64,000 nucleotides of DNA from positions 344,596,001 to 344,660,000 of the forward strand of contig OZ024742.1 in NCBI GenBank assembly GCA_964016885.1. The letters are read 5' to 3'. Below the pieces are notes generated by a model. That model worked only from the letters and a program-made list of their open reading frames with translations, made no database searches and had not been told where the DNA came from. This DNA comes from Eledone cirrhosa. Taxonomy: Eukaryota. Shown here piece after piece: positions 281 to 59,767 of this stretch. Numbering within the stretch: position 1 is the stretch's first letter; each line of letters begins with the position of its first letter. The position numbers were made by a program, and so were the translations under genes.

Positions 281-288
281 GTAAACAT

Positions 289-4572: not shown

Positions 4573-4656
4573 CATCTACCCCAAATAATAAGCCCATCAG
4601 GGCGAAAAACGGAAAAATCCCACACAATTTCTACCGGAATTTTGAATATAGCCAAA

Positions 4657-6611: not shown

Positions 6612-6651
6612 GTGATTTCTTTTCCTCTTCTTTTAACTTTTCAGCACCAAC

Positions 6652-10314: not shown

Positions 10315-10363
<49 letters not shown>

Positions 10364-27400: not shown

Positions 27401-28557
27401 GACAACAACTGTTATAGAGAGACAGGTCTAGATACAACAACTGTAATAGAGAGACAGGTCTAGAGACAACTGTAATAGAGAGACAGGTCTAGAGACAACT
27501 GTAGTAGAGAGACAGGTCTAGAGACAACTGTAATAGAGAGACAGGTCTAGAGACAACTGTAATAGAGAGACAGGTCTAGAGACAACAACTGTAATAGAGA
27601 GACAGGTCTAGAGACAACTGTAATAGAGAGACAGGTCTAGAGACAACAACTGTAATAGAGAGACAGGTCTAGAGACAACAACTGTAATAGAGAGACAGGT
27701 CTAGAGACAACTGTAATAGAGAGACAGGTCTAGAGACAACAACTGTAATAGAGAGACAGGTCTAGAGACAACAACTGTAATAGAGAGACAGGTCTAGAGA
27801 CAACAACTGTAATAGAGAGACAGGTCTAGAGACAACAACTGTAATAGAGAGACAGATCTAGAGACAACAACTGTAATAGAGAGACAGGTCTAGAGACAAC
27901 TGTAATAGAGAGACAGGTCTAGAGACAACAACTGTAATAGAGAGACAGGTCTAGAGACAACAACTGTAATAGAGAGACAGGTCTAGAGACAACAACTGTA
28001 ATAGAGAGACAGGTCTAGAGACAACAACTGTAATAGAGAGACAGGTCTAGAGACAACTGTAATAGAGAGACAGGTCTAGAGACAACTGTAATAGAGAGAC
28101 AGGTCTAGAGACAACTGTAGTAGAGAGACAGGTCTAGAGACAACTGTAATAGAGAGACAGGTCTTGAGACAACAACTGTAATAGAGAGACAGGTCTAGAG
28201 ACAACTGTAATAGAGTGACAGGTCTAGAGACAACTGTAATAGAGAGACAGGTCTAGAGACAACAACTGTAATAGAGAGACAGGTCTAGAGACAACAACTT
28301 TAATAGAGAGACAGGTCTAGAGACAACAACTGTAATAGAGAAACAGGTCTAGAGACAACAACTGTAATAGAGAGACAGGTCTAGAGACAACAACTGTAAT
28401 AGAGAGACAGGTCTAGAGACAACAACTGTAATAGAGAGACAGGTCCAGAGACAACAACTGTAATAGAGAGACAGGTCTAGAGACAACAACTGTAGTAGAG
28501 AGACAGGTGTAGAGACAACTGTAATAGAGAGACAGGTGTAGAGACAACAACTGTAAT
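12411..28557. repeat. 16.1-kb satellite of 29/32-bp monomers
   Basis: Unit AGAGACAA(CAA)CTGTAATAGAGAGACAGGTCT, roughly 500+ copies, TCTAGA (XbaI) at most junctions, no unique spacers. Confidence 0.98.
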
Positions 28558-28787: not shown

Positions 28788-28996
28788 ATTGTTTCTACTA
28801 TAGGCACAAGACCAGCAATTTTTGGAGAGGTTAAAGTCGATTAAATCGACCCCAGTGCATTACTGGTGCTTTATTTATCGACCCCATAAAGACGAAAGGC
28901 AAAGCTAACCTCGGCGGGATTTGAACTCAGAACATAAAGGGCCGTAACTCTATGCTGCAAAGCATGTTTTCCAGCGATCTACCTATTCTGCCAATC
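28788..28996 (-). mobile_element. tRNA-derived SINE
   Basis: Reverse complement of the family seen at 90-476. Confidence 0.85.
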
Positions 28997-29475
28997 TATA
29001 AATAATGAAAGAAAGCCTCGATTTTATCTTCATTATGTTTATCTTATTATATTCATGGAAGGAAGGATATTTTCTGACAGCATTCTGTTATTTTACAAAT
29101 TCAACTCATCTTAAAGAATATGGAAAGTACTCAATGCATTTCCAGACATAGTCAACATTAATAATTCTAAAAATTGAGAACGTAAGTCAAATACAAACAC
29201 AGCGCATGTGACAGATGAAAATATATGGAATGATAAACACTTTTAGCAACAACGACTCTACAATTCCTACAATTTTATCAATTACGTTACTTTTTCGATG
29301 TCGGTGGCGTTGCTTCTTAAGTTTTGATTTGGCAACGAATAAAAATTGTAATTACTTGGAAATCTACATAATTTCCGATAATTTTATTTTTGCTTCCACC
29401 AGATTCCTCTTTTCATTCGTTTTACATGAATTTCTAACACTGTATTTCTATTTTAAACTAGAAACGAATAACATA

Positions 29476-29651
29476 TTGGCAGTATCGGTAGAGGGTCGGA
29501 CGCCATGCTTTCCAGCATAGTTACGTCGTTTTACGATCTGAGTTCAAATCCCGCCGAGGTTGACTTTGCCTTTCATCCTTACGGGGTCGATAAAATAAAG
29601 TACCAGTAATGCACTGGGTATTTGCTGGCCTTGTGCCTAAAGTAGAAACAA
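29476..29651 (+). mobile_element. tRNA-derived SINE
   Basis: TTGGCAGTATCGGTAGAGGG head, GAGTTCAAATCCC, GCCTTTCATCCTTACGGGGTCGATAAAATAAAGTACCAG. Confidence 0.88.
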
Positions 29652-29926
29652 TAATATATATTTGTATATATTTTCTATATTAGGTGATTATGATATATTT
29701 ATGTATAGTATTTTGCGGTGTATAAATTGCATATTTTAACCCAAAGTTTGATGACAAAATCTGCCTGCACTCTGTACACCTATGTTATCAATACAACAAT
29801 AGCAACATATGAAATGATAGATATTTATATATAGAACTGAATATTAATTTTTTTTCCTTTAAACTTCTTCAAAATATGACTGTGTCTTATATTATGAATA
29901 ATACGGAACATATTGCATACACTTTC

Positions 29927-30529: not shown

Positions 30530-30539
30530 TCATATGTTT

Positions 30540-31415
30540 ATGTATAACAGATAACAAAATATTTCCATCATCGTATAACTTCTGTCTGTAAAATATAGTT
30601 GACATAATATATATAACAGATAACAAAATATTTCCACCATTGTATAACTTCTGCCAGTAAAATATAGTTGACATAATATATATAACAGATAACAAAATAT
30701 TTCGATCATAGTATAACTTGTGTAAAATATAGTTGACATAATATATATAACAGATAACAAAATATTTCCACCATTGTATAACTTCTGCCAGTAAAATATA
30801 GTTGACATAATATATATAACAGATAACAAAATATTTCGATCATAGTATAACTTGTGTAAAATATAGTTGACATAATATATATAACAGATAACAAAATATT
30901 TCCACCATTGTATAACTTCTGCCAGTAAAATATAGTTGACATAATATATATAACAGATAACAAAATATTTCGATCATAGTATAACTTGTGTAAAATATAG
31001 TTGACATAATATATATAACAGATAACAAAATATTTCCACCATTGTATAACTTCTGCCAGTAAAATATAGTTGACATAATATATATAACAGATAACAAAAT
31101 ATTTCCACCATTGTATAACTTCTGCCAGTAAAATATAGTTGACATAATATATATAACAGATAACAAAATATTTCCACCATTGTATAACTTCTGCCAGTAA
31201 AATATAGTTGACATAATATATATAACAGATAACAAAATATTTCGATCATAGTATAACTTGTGTAAAATATAGTTGACATAATATATATAACAGATAACAA
31301 AATATTTCCACCATTGTATAACTTCTGCCAGTAAAATATAGTTGACATAATATATATAACAGATAACAAAATATTTCGATCATAGTATAACTTGTGTAAA
31401 ATATAGTTGACATAA
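30540..31415. repeat. Minisatellite of 69-bp and 65-bp monomers forming a 134-bp dimer
   Basis: The A unit (...TCCACCATTGTATAACTTCTGCCAG...) alternates with the B unit (...TCGATCATAGTATAACTTGT...); one run of three A units. Confidence 0.95.
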
Positions 31416-32184: not shown

Positions 32185-32458
32185 AGTAAAATATATATTA
32201 AATTATGTAGAATAAAATACAAAGGTAAAAGACTAGAGAAATATATATTAGATAAAAGAACAGCTTTTCAATTGTTCCAGTTTAAATATGTGAACTAATG
32301 AAATTGGCGTTGAGAAAGAACTAACGTAAGCACTCTTTGTACGGAATTATGTGAATTTAGATATAAAATTAATGGAAGAAAATGTAGTGGTGTTAAAAAT
32401 TATGTAGGTTTGTAGTATCTGAAGGTTTTTACTATTTTGTGATTGCAGGATATTATTA

Positions 32459-32649
32459 GGTGGTGGATTGGCAGTATCGATAGAGGGTCGGACGCCATGC
32501 TTTACAACAAAGAGTTACCTCCCTTTACGGACTGAGTTCAAATCCCGCCGCAGTTAACTTTGCTTTTCATCCTTACAGGGTCGATAAAATAAAGTACCAG
32601 TAATACACTGGATTAATTACTGGCCTTGTGCCAAAAGTAGAAACAATTA
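32459..32649 (+). mobile_element. tRNA-derived SINE
   Basis: Full family structure. Confidence 0.88.
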
Positions 32650-32810
32650 TTAGGTTTTGCTTTTTATCAAGAAAAGCTTCATTGGACTTCATGATCTGGA
32701 AAACAGTCATTAGCTATGTACTCCTTCATATTGCTTGGTCTTTTTAAAGATGCTCCATTCTAAATTATCTTTGATACCCTTAAGTTTACATTTATTATTA
32801 GTCTCTGAAG

Positions 32811-33020
32811 CGCGGTGGATTGGCAGTAAAGGGCGGTGGATTGGCAGTATCGATAGAGGGTCGGACGCCATGCTTTGACGCATAGAGTTACGGCCCTTGC
32901 CATTCTGAGTTCAAATCCCGCCGAAGTTAACTTTGCCTTTCATCCTTATGGGTTGATAAAATAAAGTACCAGTAATACACTTGGTAATTTCTGGCCTTGT
33001 GCCAAAAGTAGAAACAATTA
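32811..33020 (+). mobile_element. tRNA-derived SINE with duplicated 5' head
   Basis: GCGGTGGATTGGCAGTA occurs twice at the start; the remainder is canonical. Confidence 0.88.
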
Positions 33021-33104
33021 TTAGTCTCTGCTGGTGGAGTTGTAATCCACAGTCTTGTGTGCATAAATCAGTGTCAATGTGTATAGAATCTTCTTTTAAA
33101 AAGA

Positions 33105-38969: not shown

Positions 38970-39317
38970 GGTGTGTGTGTGTCTCTCTCTATATATATAA
39001 ATAGTTTAAATAACACAAAAGAGTTAAAAGAGTTAAAGTATTCGTAAACTAACAACTGTTTCTACCCGTACTGAACCACACATTGGAAGTTTTACTTATT
39101 AAAAGCTGTCTGCAGAGTTTATCAAAATACATCAGATACTATTCCACATAGAATAATATTAAGAACATATAATATATAAAAACACTCATTACGACATTAA
39201 TGTGCAAATTGCAAAAGAAAAGTCGCCAAAAATAGTTGAAATATGGCAGTGATCAAGATCAAGAAATATATATTTTTGTGAGAGAAGAATGTGATAACTG
39301 CAGAACCGTATAAAACT

Positions 39318-39480
39318 TTTGGCACAAGGCCAGCAATTACACAGTACATTACTGGTACTTTATTTTATCGACCCCGTAAGGATGAAAGACAAAGTTAACT
39401 TCGACGGGATTTCAACTCAGACCGTAAAGGGACGTAATTATGCTAGAAAACATGGCGTCCAACTCTCTACCGATACCGCC
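39318..39480 (-). mobile_element. tRNA-derived SINE
   Basis: Reverse complement of the family consensus (CTGGTACTTTATTTTATCGACCCCGTAAGGATGAAAG). Confidence 0.85.
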
Positions 39481-40149
39481 TAATGTTATTTTAAAAGGGC
39501 TAAACTTAATAGTTCAGATATTACCTGTTCTGGTTAATGATAATTGTTTTCCACTAATAAAGTTATAAATATCCAGTTTGAGTAGTGCAATTTATGGCGT
39601 GATTTTAGGGTGTTATTGAGCACATATTTGAAACATGTTAATATATATATTTAACAAAATATACACGCATGTATATTTACTACGGAATTGATATTAAGTT
39701 ACTACATATAAAGGTTATGAACGAAATGATGTATGGGTTATGTTACTAACTGGCTCAGTATAAATCTTGAGAGATTGGGTTTCACAGAACCAGAAATGAT
39801 ACAGCTAGTAGGAAAGTTGCAACTAGATTCTATTGATGGAATTGTAAAACTATGCAAGACATTTCAGAAATTCAGCATGTAATAATTGTATATACACATA
39901 TATAAATACAAAACAAATAGTATAACCCTCGGACCTAAATTCACAAACATACACACAAACACATACAGATATACATACGTAAGTATTTACATAGCTGCTA
40001 TTGTCTAAATTTCAATGGAAGATTCTTGAGTCTCTGATAGAGGTCGATTCTATCTATTGGTAGAAATTCTAAAGCAATAAAGCCAGAAAATATGTACCAT
40101 ATATACATACATACGTACATACAAATATATACATATATATATATATATA

Positions 40150-40793: not shown

Positions 40794-41890
40794 CGGCACC
40801 TCCAGGTATTCCTCACCGGTCAACCGGTGCGGGCCCCGTTTGTGAGGTGAGCCTTTCCCAGACTCGTCTCACTCACCGAGCTGCAATCCTGGGTCAAGCA
40901 AAGACCCAGAAAACTGGGCGCCTGGCACACCGAGTGTGCCCAGGCGCTCACGGCTCTCTGGCAGGCGGACCCGGCTGTCAGTGGAGAATCCACCTCGTCA
41001 TTCTATAGAGGGCTGGTGGTTAGCAGGTGCGACGACGCCCTCGGAGAAGCCCTAGGCATGGAGGAAGACGAACTGGCCAACCTGTTCGTTAGGACATTCA
41101 GCCCGAGACCCATGGATAACTTCCAGAGGTCCCTGGCCTTGCAGTGCTACCGAGGGGCTCTGCCCGTTCGAGAAAGGCTCTACAGACACGGGTGCCTGGG
41201 TAGGGACCCCTCGAAAAAGATCTGTCCCAGATGCGTGTGCGACGAGGAAACCGTTGCACACGCATTAGTACACTGCTCGGGCATTGCCGATCTGTGTGGC
41301 TATGTCGAACAACTGCTGTCAAGGGTGGGACCGATCCGGTTGACCACCGAGTCTATTGTAACGTTCAAGCCACCTCCCCTCTTCAAAAACGAAGGAGAGG
41401 CGGTGTTTCTGTGCGTAATAGCCATGGCGAAAGAGGTTGTATGGTGGACGCGTCTGAAAGGACTGAGGTCAGACACCTTTCTCTCTGGCCAACAACTGGT
41501 CCGTTTCTTCCGATATCATTTCGGAAGAAGGATCAGGATGGAGAGAGCGTTGCTGCACCCCAGCCGTTTTTATGAAAGATAGGTGAAAGTGGCGAGAATG
41601 GCCGTGTGAATGGGCCTTCACTCTACATCAGACTATCGGTGAGGAAGATGAAAGACCAAGGGAGCACCCCCTTTCTGTGCTCCTGAGGAGAAGGGCTGCA
41701 CACTTTTTTTCGGGGGTGTGTGCGAACCCCCAAGGCGCCTCCTCTCTATTGAGGATTTTGCTATAAATTTTATCTTGTTATATTTTATTTTATTTTTATA
41801 TTTTGTTATTGCCTCCTCCTTATTGTTATGTAAACTCCCCCCATTTTACTTGTCCCAATTTTTGATGCCCTGGTGGCAAATAAAAAGAAA
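40794..41890 (+). mobile_element. Tx1-clade LINE array copy A, 5'-truncated
   Basis: ORF2 3' part with CPRC...HALVHC, 3' UTR, AATAAA, (TATC)n. Confidence 0.92.
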
Positions 41891-42123
41891 ATTATCTATC
41901 TATCTATCTGGACACATGTGCTGAGCTCACTCGGTAAGTTTTTGTTTAAATTCATACGGAAATTGTAAACTGTAAACTTTCATTTTTGTACCATTTTGTA
42001 GAGGGACTGCCAGGTCAAATTTTGATCTGGTCGGTCTCTCAAAATATTCTCCGCCTTTGGGCGAAATAGTATTGTGAACATTTTATCTTTCGAAAAACTT
42101 CGAAAAACCCTATTTTGAGAAAA

Positions 42124-44014
42124 ATGGCTGAAGCATCTTCACCATCAATCAAAGAAGGAAAGGGGAAGTCATACTCACAGCTTCCCCCTGCCACTGTCAC
42201 AGCAGCAGATGCCAAAGGCAGAGGTCAGAGAGAGGAAGAATTGTCTTCACCTGTTGACCGACCACTAGATGTAGCCACAACTACACAAGAATTTGAAAAC
42301 AACAACAACAACAAAGACAACAACAGCAACAATAAAGACAACAAAAACAACAACAACACAAACGTCACAAGTATCCACACACCAAACGAGAAAGACAACA
42401 ACAACAACAAAGATGAAAACAACTCAAACGACGAGAAACAAAACAATACTAAAATCCAAAAGCGAAAACAAAATATCTTTTGCACAAACGGCTAAATTAT
42501 CAGTCGCGTATGTGCTTGAAGATATTTCAAAAGCAAAAGAAATGCTGGAAAAAGCCAAGAAATATGTATCTTTTGGCGAAAACGGTTCGTTTTCTATACA
42601 TTCACCTCCAGAACTAAAAAAACAGACGGAATTACGAACTGTCGTATTCCGAACAATTTTAAATAAAACAAAAAAACCAGCGCAACCATCTCAAGCCGAA
42701 ATTCAGTTAGTCTTGAAAGACGCGATGAGAGACATCACTTTTATACAAAAGGATAAACTCTATGGGAGTTTATCCATATTGATGAAAGACGAATTGGCGG
42801 CGAAAAAATACTCTGTGTCGCCAATTCGGTCCACACACTACACCTTCTTCCCCACCTACATGGGTAAAAAAACCCAGAGGATATGGATAACCACCATCAC
42901 CCCAAACATAAACTACTGGTGGTTACTAACCGGCTTCCTCAATTTAGACGAGGACAACCTCATTTCAATAGGGAAGGCATCCGGCGACGCGTTCAGTGGA
43001 ACGAGCATCGAAGTTCTGACCCAAATAAGGCCAGAACGCATCGACCAAATCCCTGAGCGCGTCATGCTGGATGACCGTACCCACCTCAACATTATTGTGG
43101 AGGGTAGGCGTCCCTCCTGTTACCTCTGTGGCAATAGAGGTCACCTGAGGGCTGCCTGTCCCCAGCTCACACAGAAAAAAACACTGCTACCAACACCAAC
43201 ACCGCCCCAACAACAACAACAAAAACAACCACAACAACAACAACAACAAAAACCAACAACCCCACCACCACCACCACCACAACAACAACAACAACAACAA
43301 CAACAAACACGTGAAAAAATAACACAGAATACCGTCCCACCCAATCCCTCCCCACCCAAAACAAATACAAAAACACACACACCGCAAACACTACCAGAAA
43401 ACATACCCCTCCCACCCAACAAGGAAGACGAACCCCTTTCGTCGCAAGACGAAAAAGATCCCTTCCAACAAGTAAAAAGAAAGAAGAGGAGACGCACCAC
43501 AGACACACATGTTAACTTTAACCCCCCCCCCTCCCCCCAAGAGAACACAAACTACACACAAACCACCCCTCCCTGTCACACAACACTAAAACACTAACTG
43601 CTACACAAAAAAAGACCTTACAATATACATACATGAACACAGACAACAAAGAATTACGGAAAACAATTTCAGCAAACCCATCGGTCCAAATTGAAGGGCC
43701 TAACTTTAAAACTGCTGTGGGACTACCTCATTTGAAAATGATAAAAGTCCCAATGCACTTGTACAAAACACTGAAAATAAATTTCACGGAGGACGTGCCC
43801 CCCCCCCCCCCCCCCCCCCCCGCGCCAAAGCAATCAACCGCGTCCTCCTAAAAAAATCCCCCCACCCCACCCAGACACCCACTCAACCACAAACACCCCA
43901 ACCCCACAACACACCGATGCCCCTTCACTTCCACAAACCACCACCCCACCCAACAACCCATCCCCAACCAGCATGGAAATTGAGCGGCCCGTTTCCCGGG
44001 ACGCAGAGAGGTAA
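42124..44014 (+). pseudogene. LINE ORF1 with CX2CX4HX4C knuckle, frameshifted
   Basis: MAEASSP start, poly-Asn, CYLCGNRGHLRAAC, poly-Gln/Pro tract; split over several frames. Confidence 0.88.
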
Positions 44015-44038
44015 GTGCCTTTTCTCCTTACCACCAAC

Positions 44039-47000
44039 ATGGCTGTGCTAAGAGTAGGGTGTCTAAATGCGCGTGGCCTGGGCTCGTCTTGGAAGCAAGC
44101 AATGCTTCTAAATGACCTCAGGTCACAATCTATAAATGTGATGGTTATCTGCGAGGCCCGGATCAGCAGCATGCGACAGCTAGCCTCCACCTTTGACGAC
44201 TTTGAGATGCACGCATCTCTCTGTCAGCCCGGAGGTGGGGGTTGGGTTGTCGTTCTACTGCAAAAACATCTGGGTCTTGCCACACAGATAGTTCACTTGG
44301 ACCCAGGGGGTCGACTGGTGGTGCTGGACCTTGGCAGTGGTGAAGGTGGAGCCTTTAGGCTGGTAGCCGCATATGCCCCTTTTGGGACAGAGCGGCCCGA
44401 CTTTTTCCAGCGTCTGGAGTCTTTTCTAGGGACGTCCCGTTCCCTGCTTTTAGTGGGGGACTAGAATGGTATCCTAGATGCACGTTGGGACTATCCAGGG
44501 GCATGTCCCGATAGAGAGGGGTGCAACAGCCTCAGGGGTTACTCGGCCGATTTGACCTGGCCGATAGATTTCGACTAGATTTTCCGACGGTGCCAACCTG
44601 GTCTTGGTCAAATCGCAGCGGATCATCTAGGTTGTACCTAGATAGATTTTTAGTTAGAAATAAGGACAGGGACTTTTTAAGTTGTCCAGAAATGCTCATG
44701 GTTGGCTATTCAGACCACAAGTTGGTGACCTGCATGGTCAACCTTGATAGAACGCATAGACAGGGCCCCGGTTACTGGAAGCTCAACTTGTCCTTGCCAG
44801 CAAGTAGAGCCTACAGGATCGGATTAGTACGTTAGTTAAGGAACGGTTGACTGGAGCGATCGTCAACAGCAGGTGGTGGGTATCTCTAAAGAGAGAGATT
44901 AGAGTAGTCTCGATAGAATTTAGTAAGGTTCTAGCTGCGGATAGGAATAGGAAGGAAAGGGAGCTAATAGATAGAGTAGAAGAGGCTATTAGAAGCGGCG
45001 ACGTGGCCAGAGTGCTAGCGTCGAGAACGGCTTTGAGCCAGTTTTTCGACGCGAAGCACGAAGGCTGCGTTGTCCGAAGTAAAATACGTGCTCTAGGGAA
45101 CGAGGGGACCAAAGCTGTTAGCTGGGCCCGCGTGACAGAGGCCAACAGTGGAACTAAATCCACCATCCGGTCTTTGCGAGACCTGGATGGACGGGCGATT
45201 CTTGAGCCTAAGCAGATGTGTGAGGCCTTTCAAAGGCACTTTGCCCGACTGTTCGGGAGGGGCGGGGACCGGTTGGGAACGTGGACTTCGGTCCATAGCT
45301 CGACGGCCTGCCGCGCCTCTCGGACAGGGAGACGAAGTCCTGCGAGGAGCCGATTTCGGCCGCTGAGATAGAGGACGTGCTGAGCCAATGCGGCAAACGC
45401 AAATCCCCGGGTCTCTATGGTCTTCCTTACGAATTATATCTAGCTATGCCGGCCTTGTTCCCCGATCTCCTCGAGGCGGTCTACTGCAACTGGCGACATA
45501 ACGGGAGAATTCCCTGTACTGTGACCAAGGGCGTAGTCACGCTAGTGAGGAAGGACGAGAACAAGGGGGACGAAATAAGTAACTTCAGGCCCATAACTCT
45601 GCTAAATACAGAGTTACAGATTTTGGCCAAGGTGCTAGCAAAGAGGTTGGCGCTTGTCGTGGGAAACCTGGTGGGTGATGCGCAGACATGCGCTATCCCG
45701 TCCAGGTCCATCCATGACAACCTCCACCTCATGCGATACATCATAGAGAGGGTTGGGAACGAACCCGGCTTTGGTGGGGCTCTGATCAACTTGGATCAAT
45801 CTAAGGCGTTCGATAGGGTCGACCATGGTTACCTGGATGCGGTGCTAGCGGCGGCAGGCTTCGGACCCGTTTTCAGGGGCTGGATCACTGCTATGCACAG
45901 CAGCCACATCTGTTCTAGGGTCAAGGTGAACGGCTACCTCTCGGAGCCGTTCAAAATCGCGCAGTCCATCCGACAAGGGTGCCCTCTCTCCTCCCTTCTG
46001 TATGTGTTGACTCTCGAGCCACTACTGCGGAAGTTGGAGTTGTTGCAGGGCATCCCTTTGGAACCGGGATTGCGGAAAGCGGTGTCGGCCTACGCCGATG
46101 ATGTGACAGTAATGGTGTCGACGGCCTCCGAAATCGAGGCGGTCTGCACCTTACTGGAGGAGTACGAAAAGTTCACAGGGGCTAAGCTGAACCGGGACAA
46201 GTCGATCGGTTTGCAACTCGGCACGTGGAGGGGCAGACCGATGCCCTCCGATGGCGTCGTCGGACGCTGGACGGAGGGCCCGGTGAAGTTGCTCGGGGTC
46301 TGGTTCGGACCGGACCTCCAGGTGGAGAAAAACTGGGCGGAGGTTACGAACAGGGTGTTTGCACTGACCCAGAAGTGGGCCAGTTGCAAACTATCCCTGA
46401 AAGGTCGGGCGGAGGTGGCGAACACCTACATAGCGTCCGTCATCTACAACCGCCTGACCGTAGTGCCCTGCCCAAGGGAAACCCTCACCAAGATGGAGCG
46501 CGCACTCTTCCAATTCCTTTGGAAGAGGCGGGCTCCTATGGTGAGGAGATCCATCTGCTGTCAACACCCTTCGAAAGGAGGGCTGGGGATGCCGTGGCTA
46601 ATGATGCTTAAACACGCATTAAGGCTACGGCACCTCTACGTATTCCTCACCGGTCAACCGGTGTGGGCCTCGTTTGTGAGACGAACCTTTCCCAGACTCG
46701 TCTCACTCACCGAGCTGCAATCCTGAGTCAAGCAAAGACCGAGAAAACTGGGCGCCTGGCACACTGCGTGTGCCCAGGCGCTCACCGCCCTCTTGCAGGC
46801 GGATCCGGTTATCAGTGGAGACTCCACCACAACATTCTATAGAGGGCTGGTACGCAGCAGGTGCGACGACGCCCTCGGAGAAGCCCTAGACATGGAGGAG
46901 GACGAACTGGCCAGCCTGTTCGGTAGGACATTCAGCCCGGGACCTATGGACAACTTCCAGAAGTCCCTGGCCTGGCAGTGCTACCGAGGGGCTTTACCCG

Positions 47001-47473
47001 TTCGAGAAAGGCTCTACAGACACGGGCGCCCGGGTAGGGACCCCGCCAAAAAGATCTGTCCCAGATGCGTGTGCGACGAGGAAACCGTTGCACACGCATT
47101 GGTACACTGCTCGGGCGTAGCCGATCTGTGGGGCTATGTCGAACAACTGCTGTCAAGGGTGGGACCGATCCGGTTGACCACTGAGTCTATTGTAATGATC
47201 AAGCCGCCTCCCCCCTTCAAAGATGAAGCAGAGGCGGTGTTTCTGTGCGTAATAGCCATGGCGAAAGAGGTTGTATGGTGGACGCGTCTGAAAGGACTGA
47301 GGTCAGGCACCTTTCTCTCTGGCCAACAACTGGTCCGTTTCTTCCGATATCATTTCGGAAGAAGGATCAGGATGGAGAGAGAGGTGCTGCACCCCAGTCG
47401 TTTTTATGAAAGGTGGGTGAAAGTGGCGAGAATGGCCCGTGTGAATGGGCCTTCTCTTTACATGAGCCTGTAG
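44039..47473 (+). pseudogene. LINE ORF2 (APE-RT-CCHC), disrupted
   Basis: GCLNARGL, LVGD, YSDHKLV, GPGYWKLN, LDQSKAFDRVDH, RQGCPLS, AYADD; stops at ~44462 and ~46724 plus frameshifts. Confidence 0.93.
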
Positions 47474-47970
47474 GTGGAAAAGAGGAAGGAACGAGCGAGC
47501 ACCCCCTCTCTGTGCTCCTGAGGAAAAAGGTTGCACACTTTTTCCGGGGGTGTGTGCGACCCCCCCAAGGCGCCTCCTCTCTATTGAGGATTTTGTTATC
47601 AATTTTATTTTTTGTTATATCTTATTTTATTTTTATATTTTGTTATTGCCTCCTCCTTATTGAGGACGCCTTTTTGTGTAAACTCCCCCCTTTGTACTTG
47701 TCCCACTTTTGATGCCCTAGTGGCAAATAAAAGAAACATATCTATCTATCTCTCTGGGATGGACACACGCGTATAACTTGCTGAGTAAGTTCTGTTTAAA
47801 TTTCTATAGAAATTCTTGTCTGTTAACTTTAATTTTTGTACCATTTTGTAGAGGGACTGCCAGGTCAAACTTTGATCTGGTCAGTCTCTCAAAATATTCT
47901 ACGCCTTTAGGCGAAATAGTTAAACAAAAAAAAAAGTTTTTTCTTGTTGAAAAGTCAATATTTTTTTTAA

Positions 47971-49719
47971 ATGGCCGAAGCTTCTTCACCAAAATTCGAA
48001 GGAGGAAAGGGGAAGATAAACTTACAGCTTCCCCCTGCCACTGTCACAGTAGCAGAGGTCAAGAAGAAAGGTCAGCCAGAGGAAGAATTCTCTCCACCTG
48101 TTAACCGACAACTTGACGTTGCCATGGCAACAACCCAAAGAACCAGCGGCACCAGCAACAGCAACAACAACAACAATGCGACGGACGAAAACAACACCAA
48201 TAACAATAACAACAACAACAAGACCAATAACGGTGACAACAACAACAATGATAACAACAACACCACCAACGACAACAACAACACAAACAAACAAAATTTC
48301 TCCTTCGCCGAGACGACAAGGAAAACCCTCGACTATCTGCCAGTAGATATAACGAAAGCGAAGGAGCTACTGGCAGATGCGAACAAATATATAGTGTACG
48401 GAGAAAATGGTTCATTCACAATCCATTCCCCCCCGGAACTAAAAAGCCAGAGATTCCTAAACACGGTCATGTTTAGGACAATCTCGAACAAAAGTAAAAA
48501 GCCAGCTCAACCATCACAGAGTGAGATAGAGCTGGTTTTAAAAGACGTCATGAAGGACATCACCTTCATTCAGAAGGATAGACTCTACGGGAGTCTATCC
48601 ATTCTCATGAAGGACAGGGACACAGCAGTGAAACTGTCCATCAAACCAATCACATCCACCGCATACACCTTCTACCCTACGTACATGGGTAGAAGAACAC
48701 AAAAAATAAAAATCCACACCATCCTGCCGATTATGGACATATGGTGGGTTTTGACAGGTTTCCTGGACCTGGAGGATGACATGCTGGTGTCCATGGGAAA
48801 GGCATCGGGTGACGCGTTCAGTGGAACGAGCCTCGAACTTGTAGTTCAAATGAGGCCCGAAAGGATCGCCCAGATCCCTGAACACGTCATACTGGATGAT
48901 CTATCCTTCATCAACATTACCGTTGAGGGTAGACGGCCCTCGTGTTACCTCTGCGGAACCAGAGGTCACCTGAGGGCTGTCTGTCCCCAACTTAATAAGA
49001 AAACCCCAATCCTGCCTACACCACCAACAACTGCACAACCAACACAATCACCACAACTACCACTACAAAAACAACCACCACAGCTCAAACCAAAACAAAA
49101 CAATGTCCAACCCATCCCCTCCACTCAAAAAACCAAAACAATTTCCAAAACACCCGCACCGCAAACACAACCCGAAAATATACCCCTCCCCTCCAACGCG
49201 GAAGATGACCCTAGTTCGTCGTCAGACGAGGAGGAGCACTTCCACACAATCAAAAGAAAAAAAAGAAAACACACCTCAGACACACAAATGAAAACAACCC
49301 CTCCCCAAAACATGACACTGACACCAACACAAAAGAGCTCACAACAACAGCAAACAAAAAACACCACACAAAAACAAAAACATGCATACACATACATAAA
49401 CACAAGAAACAAAAAACTGTTAAACATTGTGTACAACAACAATCTAATAAAAACACAAGGGCCTAACTTCACCCAGGCAGGGGATTTCCCCCACCTCAAA
49501 ATGATTAAGGCCCCACAGGACACCTATAAAACTTTAAAAAACAATTTTAAAGAGGACGTGGGTCCCCCCTGCGTCGGGCCCATTAACCGCGTCCTCCTAA
49601 AAAAACTACCCCCTCCCCAAACACCCACACAACTCCAAGCTCCCCAACCACACAACACACTGATGCCCCTACACTTCCACAAACCACCACCCCACCCAAC
49701 AACCCATCCCCCACCCTAA
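47971..49719 (+). CDS. LINE ORF1 protein (582 aa, open): poly-Asn region, conserved central domain, zinc knuckle, Pro/Gln/Thr-rich tail
   Basis: Uninterrupted ORF with CYLCGTRGHLRAVC; homologous to ORF1 of copies 1 and B; the true C-terminus may lie in the -1 frame. Confidence 0.85.
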   Translation: MAEASSPKFEGGKGKINLQLPPATVTVAEVKKKGQPEEEFSPPVNRQLDVAMATTQRTSGTSNSNNNNNATDENNTNNNNNNNKTNNGDNNNNDNNNTTNDNNNTNKQNFSFAETTRKTLDYLPVDITKAKELLADANKYIVYGENGSFTIHSPPELKSQRFLNTVMFRTISNKSKKPAQPSQSEIELVLKDVMKDITFIQKDRLYGSLSILMKDRDTAVKLSIKPITSTAYTFYPTYMGRRTQKIKIHTILPIMDIWWVLTGFLDLEDDMLVSMGKASGDAFSGTSLELVVQMRPERIAQIPEHVILDDLSFINITVEGRRPSCYLCGTRGHLRAVCPQLNKKTPILPTPPTTAQPTQSPQLPLQKQPPQLKPKQNNVQPIPSTQKTKTISKTPAPQTQPENIPLPSNAEDDPSSSSDEEEHFHTIKRKKRKHTSDTQMKTTPPQNMTLTPTQKSSQQQQTKNTTQKQKHAYTYINTRNKKLLNIVYNNNLIKTQGPNFTQAGDFPHLKMIKAPQDTYKTLKNNFKEDVGPPCVGPINRVLLKKLPPPQTPTQLQAPQPHNTLMPLHFHKPPPHPTTHPPP

Positions 49720-49784
49720 TGGAAATTGTGCAGCCCGATACCCGGGACGCAGAGAGGTAAGTGCCTTTTCTCTTCACCACCAAC

Positions 49785-52700
49785 ATGGCTATGCTAAGAG
49801 TAGGCTGTTTAAATGCGCGTGGCCTGGGCTCAACTTGGAAGCAAACAATGCTTCTAAATGACCTCAGGTCACAACGTATAGATGCGATGGTTATTTGCGA
49901 GGCCCGGATCAGCAACGTGCGACAGCTGGCCCCCACCTTTGATGACTTTGAGATGCACGCATCTCTCTGTCAGCCGGGAGGTGGGGGTGGAGTTGTCGTT
50001 CTGCTGCAAAAACATCTGGGTCTCGCAACACAGATGGTACATTTGGACCCGGAGGGTCGACTAGTGGTTCTGGACCTTGGCAGTGGTAAAGGCGGAGCGT
50101 TTAGGTTGGTAGCCGCCTACGGCCCTTTCGGGTCAATGCGGCCGGACTTCTTCCATCGTCTGGAGACTTTTCTAGCTCCTTGCTATTAGTGGGGGACTGG
50201 AATGGTATCCTAGATGCACGCTGGGACTACGTATGGGGCCTGCCCCGATAGAGAGGGGTGTAATAGCCTCAAAGGGTTAATCGGTCGATTTGACCTGGCC
50301 GATAGATATCGACTAGATTTTCCGACTGCGCCAACCTGGACTTGGGCAAATCGTAGCGGATCATCTAGGTCGTACCTAGATAGGTTCTTAGTTAGAATTA
50401 AGGATAAGGACATTTTAAGTTGTCCAAAAATGCGCATGGTTGGCTATTCAGACCACAAATTAGTGACCTGCATGGTCAACCTTGACAGAACTCATAGACA
50501 GGGCCCCGGTTACTGGAAGCTCAACTTGTCCTTACCGGCAAGTAAGGCTTACAGGAACCGGATTAGCACTTTAGTTAAGGAGCGGTTGACGGGCGCCATC
50601 GTCAACAGCAGGTGGTGGGGATCTCTCAAAAGAGAGATTAGAGTAGTCTCTATAGAATTTAGTAAGGAGTTAGCCTCAAATAGAAATAGGAAGGAAAGGG
50701 AGTTGGTAGATAGTGTAGAAGAGGCAATTAGAAGCGGCGACGTGGCCAGAGTGCTAGCGTCGAGAACGGCCCTGGGCCAGTTCTTCGACGCGAAACACGA
50801 AGGCTGCATCGTCCGAAGCAGAATACGTGCTCTGGGAAACGAGGGGACCAAAGCTGTTAGCTGGGCCCGCGTGACAGAAGCCAAAAGAGGGAGCAGATCC
50901 ACTATCCGGTCTTTGCGAGACCAGGATGGACGGGTGATCCTTGAAACTAAGCAGATGTGCGAGGCTTTTCAAAAGCACTTTGCCGGATTGTTCGGAAGGG
51001 GCGGGGGGCCGGTTGGGGACGTGGACTTCGGTCCATACCTCGACGGCCTGCCGCGTCTCTCAGACAGGGAGGCGAAGTCCCGCGAGGAGCCGATTTCAGC
51101 CGCTGAGATAGAGGACGTGCTGAGCCAATGCGGCAAACGCAAATCCCCAGGTCTCGATGGTCTTCCATACGAACTATATCTAGCTATGCCGGACTTGTTC
51201 CCCGAACTCCTCGAGGCGGTCTACTGCAACTGGCAACAGAACGGGAGAATTCCCTGTGCTGTGACCAAGGGCGTAGTCACGCTAGTGAGGAAGGACGAGA
51301 ACAAGGGGGACGATATAAATAATTTCAGGCCCATAACTCTGCTAAATACAGAGTTACAGATTTTGGCCAAGGTGCTAGCAAAGAGGTTGGCGCTTGTCGT
51401 GGGAAACCTGGTGGAAGATGCGCAGACATGTGCTAACCCGTCCAGGTCCATCCACGATAACCTCCACCTCATGCGATACATCATAGAGAGGGTTGGGAAC
51501 GAACCCGGCTTTGGTGGGGCCCTGATCAACTTGGATCAATATAAGGCATTCGATAGGGTCGACCATGGTTACCTGGATGCGGTGCTAGCGGCGGCAGGCT
51601 TCGGACCCGTTTTCAGGGGCTGGATCAATGCCATGCACAGCAGCCGCATCTGCTCTAGGGTCAAGGTGAACGGCTACCTCTCGGAGCCGTTCGAAATCGC
51701 GCAGTGCATCCGACAGGGGTGCCCTCTCTACTCCCTTCTGTATGTAATGACTCTAGAGCCACTGCTGCGGAAGTTGGAGTTGTTGCAGGGCATCCCGTTG
51801 GAACCGGGATTGCGGAAAGCGGTGTCAGCCTACGCCGATGACGTAACAGTAATGGTGTCGACGGCCTCGGAAATCAGGGCGATTGGCACCTTACTGGAGG
51901 AGTACGAAAGGTTTACAGGGGCTAAGCTGAACCGGGACAAGTCGATCGGTCTGCAACTCGGCACGTGGAGGGGCAGATCGATGCCCTCCGATGGCGTCGT
52001 CGGGCGCTGGACGGAGGGCCCGGTGAAGTTGCTCGGGGTCTGGTTCGGACCAGACCTCCAGGTGGAGAAGAACTGGGGTGAGGTGACGAACAGGGTGTTT
52101 GCACTGACCTAGAAGTGGGCCGAGTGCAAACTGTCCCTGAAAGGACGGGCGGAGGTGGCGAACACTTATATAGCGTCCGTCATCTACTACCGCCTGACCG
52201 TTGTGCCTTGCCCAAGGGAAACGCTCGCCAAAATTGAGCGTGCACTCTTCCAATTCCTTTGGAAGAAGCGGGCTCCTATGGTGAGGAGATCCATCTGCTG
52301 TCAACACCCTTCGAAAGGAGGGCTGGGGATGCCGTGGCTAATGATACGTAAACACGCATTAAGGCTACGGCACCTTCAGGTATTCCTCTCCGGTCAACCG
52401 GTGTGGGCTCCGTTTGTGAGGCGAGCCTTTCCCAGACTCGTCTCACTCACCGAGCTGCAATCCTGGGTCAAGCAAAGACCGAGAAAACTGGGCGCCTGGC
52501 ACACCGAGTGTGCCCAGGCACTCACGGCTCTCTGGCAGGCGGACCCGGCTGTCAGTGGAGACTCCACCACAACATTCTATAGAGGGCTGGTACGCAGCAG
52601 GTGCGACGACGCCCTCGGAGAAGCCCTAGACATGGAGGAGGACGAACTGGCCAGCCTGTTCGGTAGGACATTCAGCCCGGGACCTATGGACAACTTCCAG

Positions 52701-52970
52701 AAGTCCCTGGCCTGGCAGTGCTACCGAGGGGCTTTACCCGTTCGAGAAAGGCTCTACAGACACGGGCGCCCGGGTAGGGACCCCGCCAAAAAGATCTGTC
52801 CCAGATGCGTGTGCGACGAGGAAACCGTTGCACACGCATTGGTACACTGCTCGGACGTAGCCGATCTGTAGGGCTATGTCGAACAACTGCTGTCAAGGGT
52901 GGGGCCGATCCGGGTGAAAGTGGCGAGAATGGCCCGTGTGAATGGGCCTTCTCTTTACATAAGCCTGTAG
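49785..52970 (+). pseudogene. LINE ORF2 (APE-RT-CCHC), disrupted
   Basis: 632-aa open block with KSPGLDGLPYELY, NFRPITLLNT, AYADD; stops at ~52110 and ~52869. Confidence 0.93.
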
Positions 52971-53245
52971 GTGGAAAAGAGGAAGGAACGAGGGAGCACC
53001 CCCTCTCTGTGCTCCTGAGGAAAAGGGTTGCACACTTTTTTCGGGGGTGTGTGCGACCCCCCAAGGCACCTCCTCTCTATTGAGGACTTTGTTATAAATT
53101 TTATTTTTTGTTATATTTTATTTTATTTTTATATATTGTTATTGCCTCCTCCTTATTGAGGACGCCTTGTTTTGTAAACTCCCCCATTGTACTTGTCCCA
53201 CTTTTGATGCCCTGGTGGCAAATAAAAGAAACATATCTATCTATC

Positions 53246-53624
53246 TATCACTTTAGAAGAAGAATCAGAGTGGAGAGAGAGGCACTGCACCCCAGTAAAT
53301 TTATTGAAAGGTGGGTGAATGAAGCGAAAATGGCCCGAGTGATTGGGCCTTCTCTGTTTATAAGCCTGCAGGTTAAAGAAGAGAGCAAAAGGAAGAAGGG
53401 AGCACTTGCACAACACGCTCCTGAAGTTGAGGGTTGTTCTATCGACGGGGTATTAAACAACCCATTTGTGGCGTCTCCCCCTATTGGGGATTTCGATTGT
53501 TATAATTGTTTGTTTTATATATATATATATATATATTTTTTTTTACACGACTGTATGTAAAATCCCCGGCATGTGTCTTTGTATTGTCCCCTTTTCTTGT
53601 GCGCTCTTGTGGCAAATAAAGAAA
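53246..53624 (+). mobile_element. Tx1-clade LINE array copy D, short 3' fragment of a different subfamily
   Basis: YHFRRRIRVEREALHPSKFIERW; its 3' UTR matches the inverted fragment at 11372. Confidence 0.88.
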
Positions 53625-53628: not shown

Positions 53629-56600
53629 TCTATATACTATTAAAACTCTGATCTTGCGTGCTTGCTGTTATGTAATACAGCCAAAAGGGCACATAATGGG
53701 TAAATACTTTGAAAGCAAGTTGGCTCTGAAATGGGAATACAAATTAAATAAAACAAGTTTCGCGAAATCTGACCCCGGGTTTCCGAGATTCGCGGGTTTG
53801 GGGGGAACCTTCGTAAATAGACACAACGGTGCATACTGGGAAAATACCTCGAAATTAACATAAACCTGCAAAACGTTGTAAATAGCCAAAACATTGCATA
53901 ATGAGAAAATACTCTGAATAAAACAAGTTTGGCGTAAATGGCACATGAACAATATTTTCAATTTTCCAAAAATAGCAAGGAATTCATCTAATTTCAATTT
54001 ATCTCATTTTATAATGAATATCGAAAAGAATAATCCCTTTTGGTTTTTGGTTGTCCATTCTGTAGGTAAGAGAGACATAGAGGGGGTGAAAGAGAGAATG
54101 AGAGAGAGGGGATGAGAGAGAGAAAGAGAGAGTGAGGGTGAGAGAGAGAAAGAGAGAGAGTGAGGGATGAAAGAGAGAATAAAGAGATGAGAGAGAGACA
54201 GCGTCCTTAACTTTTATTTATTTTATCTCTCCCCCCTATCCATAACGTTATTTCTTTCTCTCTCTTTCACAGTTCTACTGCCACCGTGTGTATCTGTATG
54301 TGTATGTGTGCCAGTGCATGTGTTTACGTACTTAGAGACGTGTGTGTAACAGTACTTAAGTTAGAGACATATATATATATGTGTGTGTGTGTGTAGGATA
54401 CCTTCGTAAATAGCCAAAACGGTGCATAATGGAAAAATATCCCTGTAAGTGACATAACCCTGAATTGGGGATAAAACAAGTTTTACGTAAATCGACATTT
54501 TCATCATTCGAGAAATATTTTTTATAATTATTAAGAAAAGATTTTTCACTGATTTCCCAGTGAATATGATTTCAAAACTACAAGTTGTTTGTACTTCAAG
54601 TATCTATATTTGAGCTTTCTTTAAACAGAAATATTCCTAAATGATGATTTAAAAAAAATATTTGTTGAAGTAATAGGAATTTTTTCTAACGTGAATACGA
54701 TTTTCTATTCTTAAATAATGCCTCGACGAGGAAGAAAGAAAACATCTGGTTGGTCTATCGATAGTGGAAAGAAAGCACGGCTAAGGAGAGCCGAAGAAGG
54801 TGAGCAAGATAGTGGTCAACGCCAACAAGATCGGCACAGGCATGCGAATAGAAGGATCGATGAGACTGAGAAAGCAAGGGCTGCGCGTCTGGCGGAACAG
54901 AGGGAAAGAGACAGAAGAAGGAGAGATCATGAATCGGATGGTCGGAGAGCTGAATGACTTTGCCAACAAACCATTAGGGATAGAGCAAGGACAGTTCAAC
55001 GACGTGACCTCTATGCTGATGTTGGACAGATGAATAAGATCTGTGTCTGTTGTCATGCAATGCTTTTTCATGGTGAAACTGCTAACTTTTGCTGTATGAA
55101 TGAAAAGGTCAGGCTGGGGAATCTGCAGCATTTATCCCAGGAACTTCACAGTTTATTTAGTACTGATCAACCTAGGGCAAACGAGTTCAGGAAGAACCTC
55201 AGACAATATAACTGCATGTTCCAAATTACATCTTTTGGGGTTGAAGAAGTTCATTCCTCAAAGAGTGGATGGAATCCTTCTATCGTTATTCATGGTCAAA
55301 TTCACCATTACATCGGTTCCTTAACCCCTAATCAAAACGAACAACCCAATGTCTTCAAATTTACTTCTTGGATCCTCAGGATAGTGTTGATTTGAGGATC
55401 AGGATACTCCATAACGATGGCATTCAGCGCGATATAGTTGAATTATTGGAAATAATACTCAGACAATATAACCCTTACGTTGCTTCATTTCGAATGGCAA
55501 AAGAACAAATTAAAAATATTCCCGAAGCTTCGATTATTGTTGATCCTGATAGGAGACCAGCAATGGAACATGAGATAAGATTCAATACACAAACTGCAAA
55601 CGAAGTTGCCGTTATTATACAAAATAGCAGCGAACTTCAAGCAAAAGCACGGCATATTGTGTTGAAAGAAAAAGGCGGGCAATTGCAAATAATCTCAGAG
55701 TCCCATCGGTCCTATGACAGTTTGCATTATGTTCTCTTTTTTCCTTTTGACTATGACGGATGGCATCATGAGCTATTAATGAGCAACAACAAGAAGTTGA
55801 CGCCAATGCGCTACTATGCCTATCGAATAATGAACCATGAGAATGAATTCAACCAACTTCTCAGAGCCGGTCGTTTGTTTCAGCAATATTTGGTTGACAT
55901 GGCTGCGAAGATTGAAGGAGATAGACTGCAATACATCCGAATGAATCAAACATCATTGCGATCTACAGCATACAAGGGCCTTACTGACGCATTGAATGAT
56001 GATGACGATTTTCTCAATATTGGCAGGGGAATCATACTCTCTTCCACATTTATCGGTAGACCTAGATATATGATGGAGCGATGCCAGGATTCCATGATGT
56101 ACATACGGAAGTACGGCAATCCTTCGTTCTTCATCACAATGACATGCAATCCAAACTGGCCCGAAATCCGGCAAAACCTATTCCTGAATCAGAAGCCACA
56201 TGGCAGGCCAGATTTAATTGCCAGAGTATTTGACCTGAAGCTGAAACTGTTAAGAAAGTATCTTACTGGAGTAGATGGCCTATTTGGCAAGTGTATTGCT
56301 TACGTGCTGACAGTCGAATATCAAAAGCGAGGTCTTCCTCATGTGCACTGTTTGCTATGGCTCAATGAAGCCTCCAAGCCCAGACCGCAGGAATATGATA
56401 AATTTGTTCAAGCCGAAATACCAGATCCAAACAAAGATCCAGGGGGTCATGAAATGGTGCTGAATCGCATTATCCACGGTCCGAATTGCTCTAACAATTC
56501 GCCGTGTTGGAAAGATGGAACGTGCAGTAAGCGGTAACCTAAGCCGTTCAATGAATATACATTGCGTGGAGACGACTCTTATCCTGTGTACAGAAGACGG

Positions 56601-58990
56601 TCTCCAGGAATGCGAGGATTTGAGGGGCACCAAGAACGAAGGGGAAGCCGAAATATAACTTCGGAATGAGTGGTTCCCTACAATATGAAACTATTAAAAC
56701 TGTTCAACTGCCACCTAAACGTAGAGATGTGCTCTTCCATGAAATCGATCAAATACATTATCAAATATACCATGAAGGGCAGTGATCAGGCAATGTTTGG
56801 AGTGAACAGGCAAGATGAGATAATACAGTATTTAACAGGAAGATATATCGGTCCTTCAGAAGCTGTTCCTTGGTACTTGTATTTCCAATTTATGAGAGAG
56901 AACCGGCCGTAGTTCGCCTCCAAGTTCATCTACCTGAGTAAAATCAAATCTTCTTTCGGGTCAATGCTGCTGTTAAAGTAAACAATAACATGGCTAAGAC
57001 GACTCTCACTGATTTCTTGGATCTTTGCGATCGCGATCCGTTTGCAAAAACATTGTATTATAGCGATGTGCCAAAGTTTTACACATGGAGTAATAAGAGA
57101 TGAGAAAGGAGAAAGGTGAGGGAAACAGTTGAGCAGTATCCAGGGATTTTTGAGGCGAAGGTTTTGGGACGAGTATACACTGTTTCTCCACGAAGTGGTG
57201 ACTTGTATTATTTAAGACTCCTGCATCACGTCAAAAGGCCAGTATCCTTCAACTCTTTGAAAATATGTGATAGAGAACTCCTGCCATTATTCAAAGACGT
57301 CTGCAGAGAGAAAGGTTTGCTTCAATCGGATGATCATTGGCAGCAGACTCTGGAAGATGCTGAGCGAACAAGGCTTCCCAAAGCCATAAGAGATCTATTC
57401 ATCCTGCTCCTCACAAATACGGAAATTGACAATTCCAGTCCTTTATGGGCGCGATTTAAGCATTTGCTGTCTGAGAGTTACCTTCAAATAGAAAAAAGGG
57501 TTACCAGAAACTCTAACCTTTTGATTAGCGAGAGACATTATGATCAATGTCTTCTGTATTTTGAAGACAAACTTAACGACCTGGCCAAAAGTCTTAGTGA
57601 CTTTAACTTGCCAAGGCCAAATAATATTGTTGCTAATCAGGATATTGGCAATTTGGAGTTATTGCATGAATTGCAATACAGCAGAGAAGAGCAGCGACGA
57701 TTTGTAGAAGAGAGGGAGCTTCTATTGAATAGTGATCAAACACACGTGTACGACTTCGTTTGTAACAGTTTAGAGACGAACACATCTCCATTGATTTTCA
57801 TTGACGCTCCAGGTGGAACAGGAAAGACATTCCTGATTAACTTAATTCTTTGAAAAGTCAGGGGAAACGGTGACGTAGCTATTGTTGATGCATCATCTGG
57901 CATTTCCGCAACACTGATGCCTGGTGGAAGAACAGCGCATTCTAGGTTCAAAATACCGATAGTAGTGAAAGAAAATGATCTGTGCAACATTGATAAAAAC
58001 TCAAGGACCGCAAACCTTTTCCAGCATACAAGGCTGATTGTTTGGGATGAGTGTCCTATGATTCGGGGGGAAAGCTTCAAAGCTGTTGACCTCACTCTGC
58101 GTGACATATGCGACAACAATGAGGCATTCAGTGGAATTTTGACAAATTATTGTGGCGATTTCCGTCAGCTTCTTCCGGTAGTGAAAAGGGGAAATGAAGC
58201 GGACGTGGAAAACGCCTGCATTAAAAAATCCTACTTATGGCGAAGCTTCAAAAGATTTCAGTTGAAGAAAACATGCGATTTGGTAGCGGAGCAGGAGACT
58301 ACTCACAGTTCCTATTGGATATTGGAGAAGATAAGAAAAAAAAATGAAATGAGGAAATTATTTTGCCAAAAGTAATGGTTCTCCAAGCAACAACTATGGA
58401 AGAATGTATTGATTTCATCTACCCCTCATTCGACAATCCAGCTGAAGTGTTTTCGAACAATTGCATCTTAGTACCTCTCAATGAAATGATGAGAAGCATC
58501 AATTCCACCTGTATCAGACTCTTCTCTGGAACCATAAAAGAGTACCGATCCTATAATTCTGTGAGTTATGGTGCCAATGTCACTCATTTCCCGACTGAAT
58601 TCCTTGATTCGGTTGAACTATCAGGACTGCCACCACATAACCTGGAATTGAAAAAAGGATCGCCAATAATTTTAATGAGAGACTTGAATCCTCCTTTTTA
58701 AGCAGAAAAATCTTTCAGAACAAACAGTCAAGCATCCATAGAGATATATAAAAAAAAATTTTGAAGTGGAGTGATTGGATAACTATTAGTGAAAAATGAT
58801 TTGATATTTTCTTTGTGAAAATACTTGTGAATAATACAGTGAAAAGACAAATTTCGCGTAATCGGACCACGGGTTCCCGAGATACGCGGGTTTTTTCGGG
58901 TACCTTTATAAATAGCCAAATCAGCGCATAATGTGAAAATACTTTGAAAGTAAGGTTCCATTGAAATGTGAATACAAACGCAGATAGTGG
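53629..58990 (+). mobile_element. Helitron (formerly autonomous, decayed, 3' end not found)
   Basis: 5' A|TCTATATACTATTAAAA terminus candidate, Rep/Hel coding remnant, related subterminal repeats at both ends. Confidence 0.82.
54718..58701 (+). pseudogene. Helitron RepHel (HUH Rep plus Pif1-family helicase), disrupted and C-terminally truncated
   Basis: CxxC..CC N-terminal motif; Rep motifs FFITMTCNPNWPEI, VEYQKRGLPHVHCLL, KYIIKY; helicase motifs DAPGGTGKTF, GRTAHSRFKIP, IVWDECPM, GDFRQLLPV, SGLPPHNLELK. Confidence 0.93.
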
Positions 58991-59547: not shown

Positions 59548-59634
59548 TACACACCTAAACGTATACTAAGATATATCAATGCTTAAAGACTAGAGATAAT
59601 CTGTACTGAGTGTGAAATTACTTATTTCGTAGAG
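59548..59634. repeat. 87-bp direct repeat, copy 2
   Basis: Matches 40287-40373. Confidence 0.85.
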
Positions 59635-59671
59635 TATGTATATATGTATATATATATATATATATGTAGGA

Positions 59672-59767
59672 TGTCCGTAAAAAGGTCAGGGAAAACAATG
59701 CTCAATGTATATATATATATATATATATATTCATTGAGCATTGTTTTCCCTGACCTTTTTACGGACA
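59672..59767. repeat. Perfect 36-bp inverted duplication around a (TA)n spacer at the PLE 5' junction
   Basis: 59672-59707 is the exact reverse complement of 59732-59767. Confidence 0.95.

Follow-up and report, generated by a model that had tools for sequence, protein, structure and literature searches.

An intron-like unit with conserved ends, retained in the 5' UTR of L1/Tx1-type LINEs of Eledone cirrhosa

LINEs characteristically lose introns when they are copied. Retention of introns helped to define the Penelope-like elements as a separate class of retroelements, and in Penelope from Drosophila virilis a 75-bp intron lies within the promoter region, about 46 bp downstream of the transcription start, and is missing from most transcripts (PMC2377424). 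In human L1, RNA structure or a bound protein has been suggested to limit the use of the 5' UTR donor, and splicing within the 5' UTR is viewed as the cost of a RUNX3 site (PMC5860796). Among cephalopods, L1-Tx1 families are listed among those recently active in Octopus vulgaris (PMC13282606), and the strings "intron" and "splic" have no occurrence in the main text of two papers on octopus transposable elements (PMC9115989, PMC13282606). We found no published L1/Tx1 element described as retaining an intron at its 5' end; supplements, Repbase or Dfam entries, and subscription papers could hold such an annotation.

Here we report the analysis of an intron-like unit near the 5' end of LINEs in Eledone cirrhosa, starting from a window of 64,000 nt, by which we mean the whole stretch of contig OZ024742.1 (assembly GCA_964016885.1) that was analyzed. 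A preliminary description of the window had proposed a candidate spliceosomal intron in two full-length copies, B and C, with spliced RNA serving translation and unspliced RNA serving transposition. We compared the unit across the lineages of the family, counted copies with and without it in the assembly, and weighed the possible reasons for its persistence.

An L1/Tx1-type LINE family in the window and in the genome

Judged by its sequence, the element is an L1/Tx1-type LINE belonging to a large (TATC)n-targeting cephalopod family, and the L1/Tx1-type assignment of the preliminary description is supported by the ORF2 domains and by the structural match to human L1 ORF2p. The ORF2 of one lineage-G copy matches PF03372 (APE), PF00078 (RT), and PF13966 (zf-RVT, below its cut-off), the ORF2 of window copy C matches RT and zf-RVT, and the best PDB match of ORF2 is human L1 ORF2p (E 2.5e-31), with R2 at 1e-17. 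The traits of the L1 group are all present, namely a separate ORF1, the lack of LTRs, a 3' AATAAA followed by a simple-repeat tail, and 5' truncations; in place of the RT fused to GIY-YIG that is the hallmark of Penelope-like elements there is an APE domain. The ORF1 core ends in a visible CX2CX4HX4C motif (zf-CCHC E 0.018, below the cut-off), and a CCHC knuckle in ORF1 is a feature of the Tx1 clade. TATC/TC-type repeats adjoin 166 of the 169 intact 5' ends among the sampled loci, indicating a target-sequence preference, and microsatellite targeting, as with (TATC)n here, is known for Tx1-clade elements (PMC4494074).

The nearest named ORF2 proteins are those of Argonauta hians, at 61-64%, and of a cuttlefish, at 42-47%. 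A HMMER search with ORF1 gave 146 matches, the named ones being from Argonauta and Octopus sinensis, and ORF1 had no match when searched against longer proteins. The family is large and in part young; about 25,000 first-look ORF1 candidates, which are not copy numbers, occur in the genome, and 150/150 scored matches show 98-100% identity. At the 3' ends (79 loci), a common motif set (C-run, TGTCCC, GCCC...GTGGC, AATAAA) is seen in the lineages inspected despite divergent 3' UTRs, and it is possibly a recognition signal for the RT.

In the window, copies B and C are arranged head-to-tail, the 5' end of each adjoining the AATAAA-(TATC)n tail of the preceding copy (Table 1). The coordinates, the lengths of 68 and 67 nt, and the GTAAGT and TTTGTAG motifs that the preliminary description had given for the two segments were all re-found. 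The distance from the 5' end to the donor is 24 nt in copy B and 29 nt in copy C. Between the two copies, 56 of 68 positions are identical in the segment, 65 of 70 in the 70 nt that follow, and 14 of 24 in the leader; because the following 70 nt are closer than the segment itself, selection on the splice signals is unprovable from B and C alone.

Table 1. Features of the 64,000-nt window (positions are those of the window)
Feature	Positions	Strand	Remarks
Copy A, third lineage	4575..10320	+	5'-truncated below the intron-like unit; intact relatives have GTGAGT...TTTGTAG
5'-truncated copy, same family as B/C	40794..41909	+	tail directly before copy B
LINE copy B, full length	41910..47755	+	ORF2 broken
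Copy B leader, putative exon 1	41910..41933	+	a few nt short of family 5' end; after (TATC)n tail of upstream copy
Copy B intron-like unit, 68 nt	41934..42001	+	register 1; GTAAGT...TTTGTAG
Copy B hairpin 1	42001..42040	+	predicted first pair uses G of acceptor AG; z = -6.2 (86-nt region)
Copy B hairpin 2	42043..42073	+	short stem common to all lineages
Copy B ORF1	42124..43597	+	ATG at 42124; AAC-rich N-terminus with frame changes
LINE copy C	47756..53250	+	head-to-tail after copy B; terminates in AATAAA + (TATC)n
Copy C leader, putative exon 1, 29 nt	47756..47784	+	
Copy C intron-like unit, 67 nt	47785..47851	+	register 1; GTAAGT...TTTGTAG
Copy C hairpin 1	47851..47890	+	z = -6.2 (86-nt region)
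Copy C ORF1, 582 aa, open	47971..49719	+	CCHC-like knuckle
Copy C ORF2: APE-like N-terminus, RT, zf-RVT	49782..52871	+	frameshift and stops break frame
Satellite, 16 kb	12411..28557		~30-32-bp units (61-bp dimer), 91% matches
AT-rich tandem array	30539..31415		69/134-bp, 90-96% matches
Broken Helitron Rep/PIF1 helicase ORFs	55332..58375		PF14214, PF05970
Two long ORFs	59587..62216		by eye Penelope-type RT + endonuclease; no Pfam match at E 1
~200-nt repeat, likely a SINE	76..486, 628..790, 28845..28999, 29467..29655, 32451..33032, 39315..39490		many copies, 80-88% identical

Two registers of the intron-like unit

The lineages were gathered from copies A, B, and C and their tandem neighbors (79 stretches, 30 of them with the 5' UTR), which gave nine lineages in the genome: A, B, C, H, D (with D2), E (with E2), F, G, and I. 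The ORF1 cores of the seven lineages compared are 36-68% identical. A 60-69-nt unit of the form GTRAG...YAG is found in 9/9 lineages, at one of two mutually exclusive registers.

Register 1 is used by A, B, H, C, D, and D2, with units of 67-69 nt. No variation is seen at donor positions +1, +2, +4, and +5 or in the final seven bases; of the 115 neighboring columns in the anchored, gap-free comparison, 18 are invariant (a gapped alignment puts this background nearer 22%). Donor position +3 is only A or G and position +6 is T, C, or A, which is the usual behavior of splice donors. The pyrimidine share of the last 20 nt in this register ranges from 0.4 to 0.75, with D and D2 poor at 0.4-0.5. The lineages of register 2 (E, E2, I, F, and G) have no GT at the first site. 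Their GTRAGT stands about 33 nt downstream of the register-1 donor site; measured from hairpin 1 it is 35-36 nt upstream in E, I, and F, and in G it is 40 nt upstream of the anchor used. Five of its six positions are invariant, compared with 4 of 79 background columns, and the unit closes with a YAG at 60 nt in E, E2, I, and G and at 69 nt in F. Of the four register-2 lineages, E keeps the old AG before the hairpin, and the other three (F, G, and I) have lost it. Lineage I was discovered after the two-register pattern had been noted, and it fits the pattern.

Other parts of the unit are less uniform. C, D, E, I, F, and G have a YTRAY motif no more than 30 nt from the acceptor, and A, B, H, and D2 have none; the interior is conserved in 14 of 63 columns, and its T/A-rich motif persists in E. 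The donors match the U1 complement moderately well (6-9 of 11). Of the motif conservation claimed in the preliminary description for B and C, the donor and acceptor part holds when taken family-wide rather than from B and C alone, and the branch-like part is the weakest; the comparison of GT/AG with neighboring bases across subfamilies, which it had proposed, shows the ends to be far better conserved than neighboring columns. From these alignments, we conclude that the unit is a real feature with both ends under selection, and that the two ends move jointly from one register to the other.

The lineages are not independent trials, because they are related and have swapped leaders. Five loci (L051, L052, L241, L254, L255) are chimeras that join the leader of one lineage to the body of another, and judging by them 5' UTR swapping between subfamilies is likely. 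In the ORF1 tree, in which the row for lineage I is less than half filled, the registers interleave and the starred branches force at least three register changes; a single origin for each register is not what this tree gives. The branches of the register-2 lineages (E, F, G, I) are 2-4 times longer than those of their register-1 sisters A, B, and C. An AGAYRY/GGACAC-type motif occurs near the 5' end of the lineages (leaders of L258, L261, L266, L194, L120, and L140), about 28 nt from the 5' end in E, and presumably resembles a downstream promoter element.

Two alternatives can be weighed against this pattern. The first holds that the unit is a neutral relic or a product of chance, either a fragment of host exon and intron that the element took up at its 5' end or an AT-rich sequence that happens to hold GT...AG. 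L1 elements can pick up 5' pieces of host RNA (PMC13174262), and the window contains 58 units of the form GTRAG-N52-62-YAG when both strands are counted, or about 0.045 per 100 nt. By chance, a GTRAG falls in the first 100 nt of 5-21% of the sequences obtained by dinucleotide shuffling of 10 leaders. Yet 11 signal columns are invariant against a background of 16% among lineages whose ORF1 cores are 44-68% identical, and GTRAG occupies one of two fixed places in 9/9 lineages; on these comparisons, the relic or chance explanation appears already largely refuted, and we regard it as very unlikely. The second alternative takes the motifs for DNA elements of an internal promoter, or for protein-binding RNA motifs, that merely resemble splice sites. 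An internal promoter could well lie 25-85 nt from the 5' end, the interior columns show some conservation, spliced copies are lacking among those counted, and human L1 keeps an unused donor for the sake of a transcription-factor (RUNX3) site (PMC5860796). Against this, the variation is that of splice sites, with A or G at +3 in both registers and +6 free. Where the donor has shifted, by about 33 nt, the old AG has decayed in three of four lineages, and G has its YAG at 60 nt even though its interior cannot be aligned. Two unrelated factor sites would have to mimic such a pattern. We consider an explanation by promoter or protein-binding motifs improbable.

Retention, the hairpin, and possible roles of the unit

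Genomic copies were examined by exact pattern scans of the assembly, with genome-wide junction counts for lineages C, G, and D and sampled loci for A, B, E, F, H, and I. Copies of the SpIRE type, from which exactly the spliced segment is absent, numbered 0 against 393 retained copies in lineage C and 0 against 516 in lineage G (first acceptor only), giving an upper bound of about 0.3% for the spliced fraction in C and G together (0/909). For lineage D, a scan for anything joined at the acceptor, which has no pattern denominator, revealed no spliced copy, and 24 of 25 sampled loci retain the unit; the sole match of this junction scan comes from a copy that retains the unit and carries a local duplication. 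Among 190 sampled loci, 169 retain the leader and the unit, 2 are retained chimeras, 12 are without a 5' UTR, and 7 have a 5' UTR that is itself truncated or damaged; a leader gap of at least 20 nt occurs in 0/190. Loci of B and C were selected by ORF1 alone (48 of 60 being 5'-complete) and those of A, D, E, F, and G by the lower UTR. The lineage-E copy L215, considered as a spliced copy, proved to carry an internal leader deletion without GT-AG boundaries.

With 0/909 spliced copies, the RNA that is copied is therefore unspliced. This bears out, for C and G, the earlier proposal that unspliced RNA serves transposition; at the same time, precisely intron-less copies, whose absence the preliminary description had counted against an intron, were lacking in C, G, and D. 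Assembled contigs were available from four runs of one study, of a kind not on record, and over positions 47750-48140 they contain two joints, neither of them at the unit. A contig of run X2, a run of uneven depth, spans the unit unspliced (368 nt, depth 31.5), another X2 contig (depth 381) includes the G unit of a G+B locus with only 30 letters on the donor side, and of the 15 joints listed for that locus, out of 72, none falls at either unit. The contigs are not counted as evidence, because contigs drop rare forms and the kind of run X2 is not on record.

A stable hairpin (hairpin 1) is predicted just after the register-1 acceptor and contains the register-2 acceptor. The hairpin region has z-values of -2.8 to -6.2 in 7/7 regions, and no structure is indicated for the two leader-plus-unit regions that were folded (z 0.2 and 0.7). 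Changes on both sides of the stem are seen in 11 of 21 pairs, a count reached in 126/500 shuffles, and the covariation score of 0.277 was reached in 0/500 shuffles, a control that ignores relatedness and uses a structure drawn from the same sequences. The G of the acceptor is predicted to be paired with a probability of 0.87-1.00 in 11/11 representatives, compared with a mean of 0.53-0.62. An arrangement of open donor and masked acceptor is nonetheless not evident, because the donors are often predicted to be paired as well (0.22-0.99). In register 2, hairpin 1 contains both the branch-like and the AG motif, which may be kept by pairing alone. A search of Rfam gave two weak chance matches, far under the thresholds.

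With moderate confidence, we favor the explanation that the pair of splice signals recruits U1 and the early spliceosome to the benefit of expression and remains mostly unexcised in the transposing RNA. Transcription would begin from an internal promoter at the 5' end, and U1 with early spliceosome factors would bind the donor-acceptor pair near the cap. The element might gain by being transcribed more, by avoiding early polyadenylation in the A-rich ORF1, or by a coupling to 3'-end formation; the predicted pairing of the acceptor in the hairpin would suppress excision and make it rare in the RNA that is copied. The A-rich ORF1 region contains AATAAA signals, three in B and two in C. U1 at the donor of the retroelement EVD is described as blocking premature termination of unspliced RNA (PMC5580714), and an acceptor can promote 3'-end formation even when no excision takes place (PMC3737548). 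The basis of this explanation is the conservation of the ends, the two registers, the retention in all counted copies with a complete 5' end, and the stable hairpin with its paired changes, and it is favored because 0/909 needs no extra step. It is opposed by the old AG that E retains at an unspliceable 35 nt, by the moderate U1 matches, by the poor pyrimidine tract of D and D2, and by the donors that are often predicted to be paired; the part-conserved interior and the T/A-rich motif persisting in E also count against it and would rather suit a promoter role.

The main competitor is a true, regularly spliced intron, whose spliced mRNA would be exported and translated into proteins that copy unspliced RNA in trans, this RNA being U1-held, nuclear, or hairpin-intact. 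That the two ends are conserved together, shift together between registers, and keep a spliceable 60-69 nt agrees with such an intron, as does the precedent of Penelope, where the 75-bp intron is needed for protein output (PMC2377424); excision in register 2 would also remove most of hairpin 1 and could disable the spliced template. However, with 0/909 counted copies spliced (an upper bound of about 0.3%), it demands near-perfect exclusion of spliced RNA, and the division of labor needs an extra step that bars spliced RNA from retrotransposition. If cis-preference holds, translation from spliced mRNA is also a poor fit, since in human L1 even rare splicing leads to about 2% spliced copies (PMC5860796). 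Moreover, excision in register 1 leaves hairpin 1 almost whole, and the segments of B, C, H, D, and D2 have no upstream ATG for splicing to remove, which leaves the removal of an upstream ORF by splicing unsupported. We treat regular splicing as a tentative second choice. The same doubtful standing applies to the broader proposition that an L1/Tx1-type LINE kept a bona fide intron, slid its register through the whole radiation seen here, and translates spliced RNA while retrotransposing only the unspliced form.

Evasion of HUSH was also considered and is a poor fit, because protection grew with intron length, a small artificial intron giving none (PMC8770142), and the unit has only 68 nt.

Comparison with known systems

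A selected pair of splice signals in the 5' UTR of a LINE suggests that such elements can exploit the splicing machinery and do not merely suffer from splicing. Nine lineages, two registers, and hundreds of young copies make the family a natural experiment on intron sliding, cis-preference, and the choice of unspliced RNA. Should the intron be truly spliced, RNA sorting of the Penelope or retrovirus kind would exist in the L1/Tx1 group, and cis-preference would be overturned for it.

Kibi and Koshi, Tx1-clade LINEs, share with this family a microsatellite target, here (TATC)n, and no intron is mentioned for them in the available part of their description (PMC4494074). Arabidopsis EVD, of the Ty1/Copia type, likewise has a retroelement donor, which binds U1 and protects the unspliced full-length RNA; it differs in being an LTR element with a coding-region intron and a GAG-only RNA, whereas the unit described here lies in the 5' UTR of a non-LTR element (PMC5580714). 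Human L1 is an L1-type LINE with a conserved 5' UTR donor that is rarely used; its splicing removes about 500-900 nt, uses several acceptors, and has left about 2% spliced copies, the SpIREs (PMC5860796). In contrast, the compact unit of 60-69 nt in Eledone keeps both of its ends, in two registers, with 0/909 spliced copies. The likeness to Penelope lies in a short 5' intron-like unit that survives transposition and whose splice sites distant relatives have kept (PMC2377424). Penelope itself combines an RT with GIY-YIG, and its splicing was seen by RT-PCR (PMC2377424), whereas the element of Eledone combines an ORF1 with a CCHC-like knuckle and an ORF2 with APE, RT, and zf-RVT, and its intron is a candidate.
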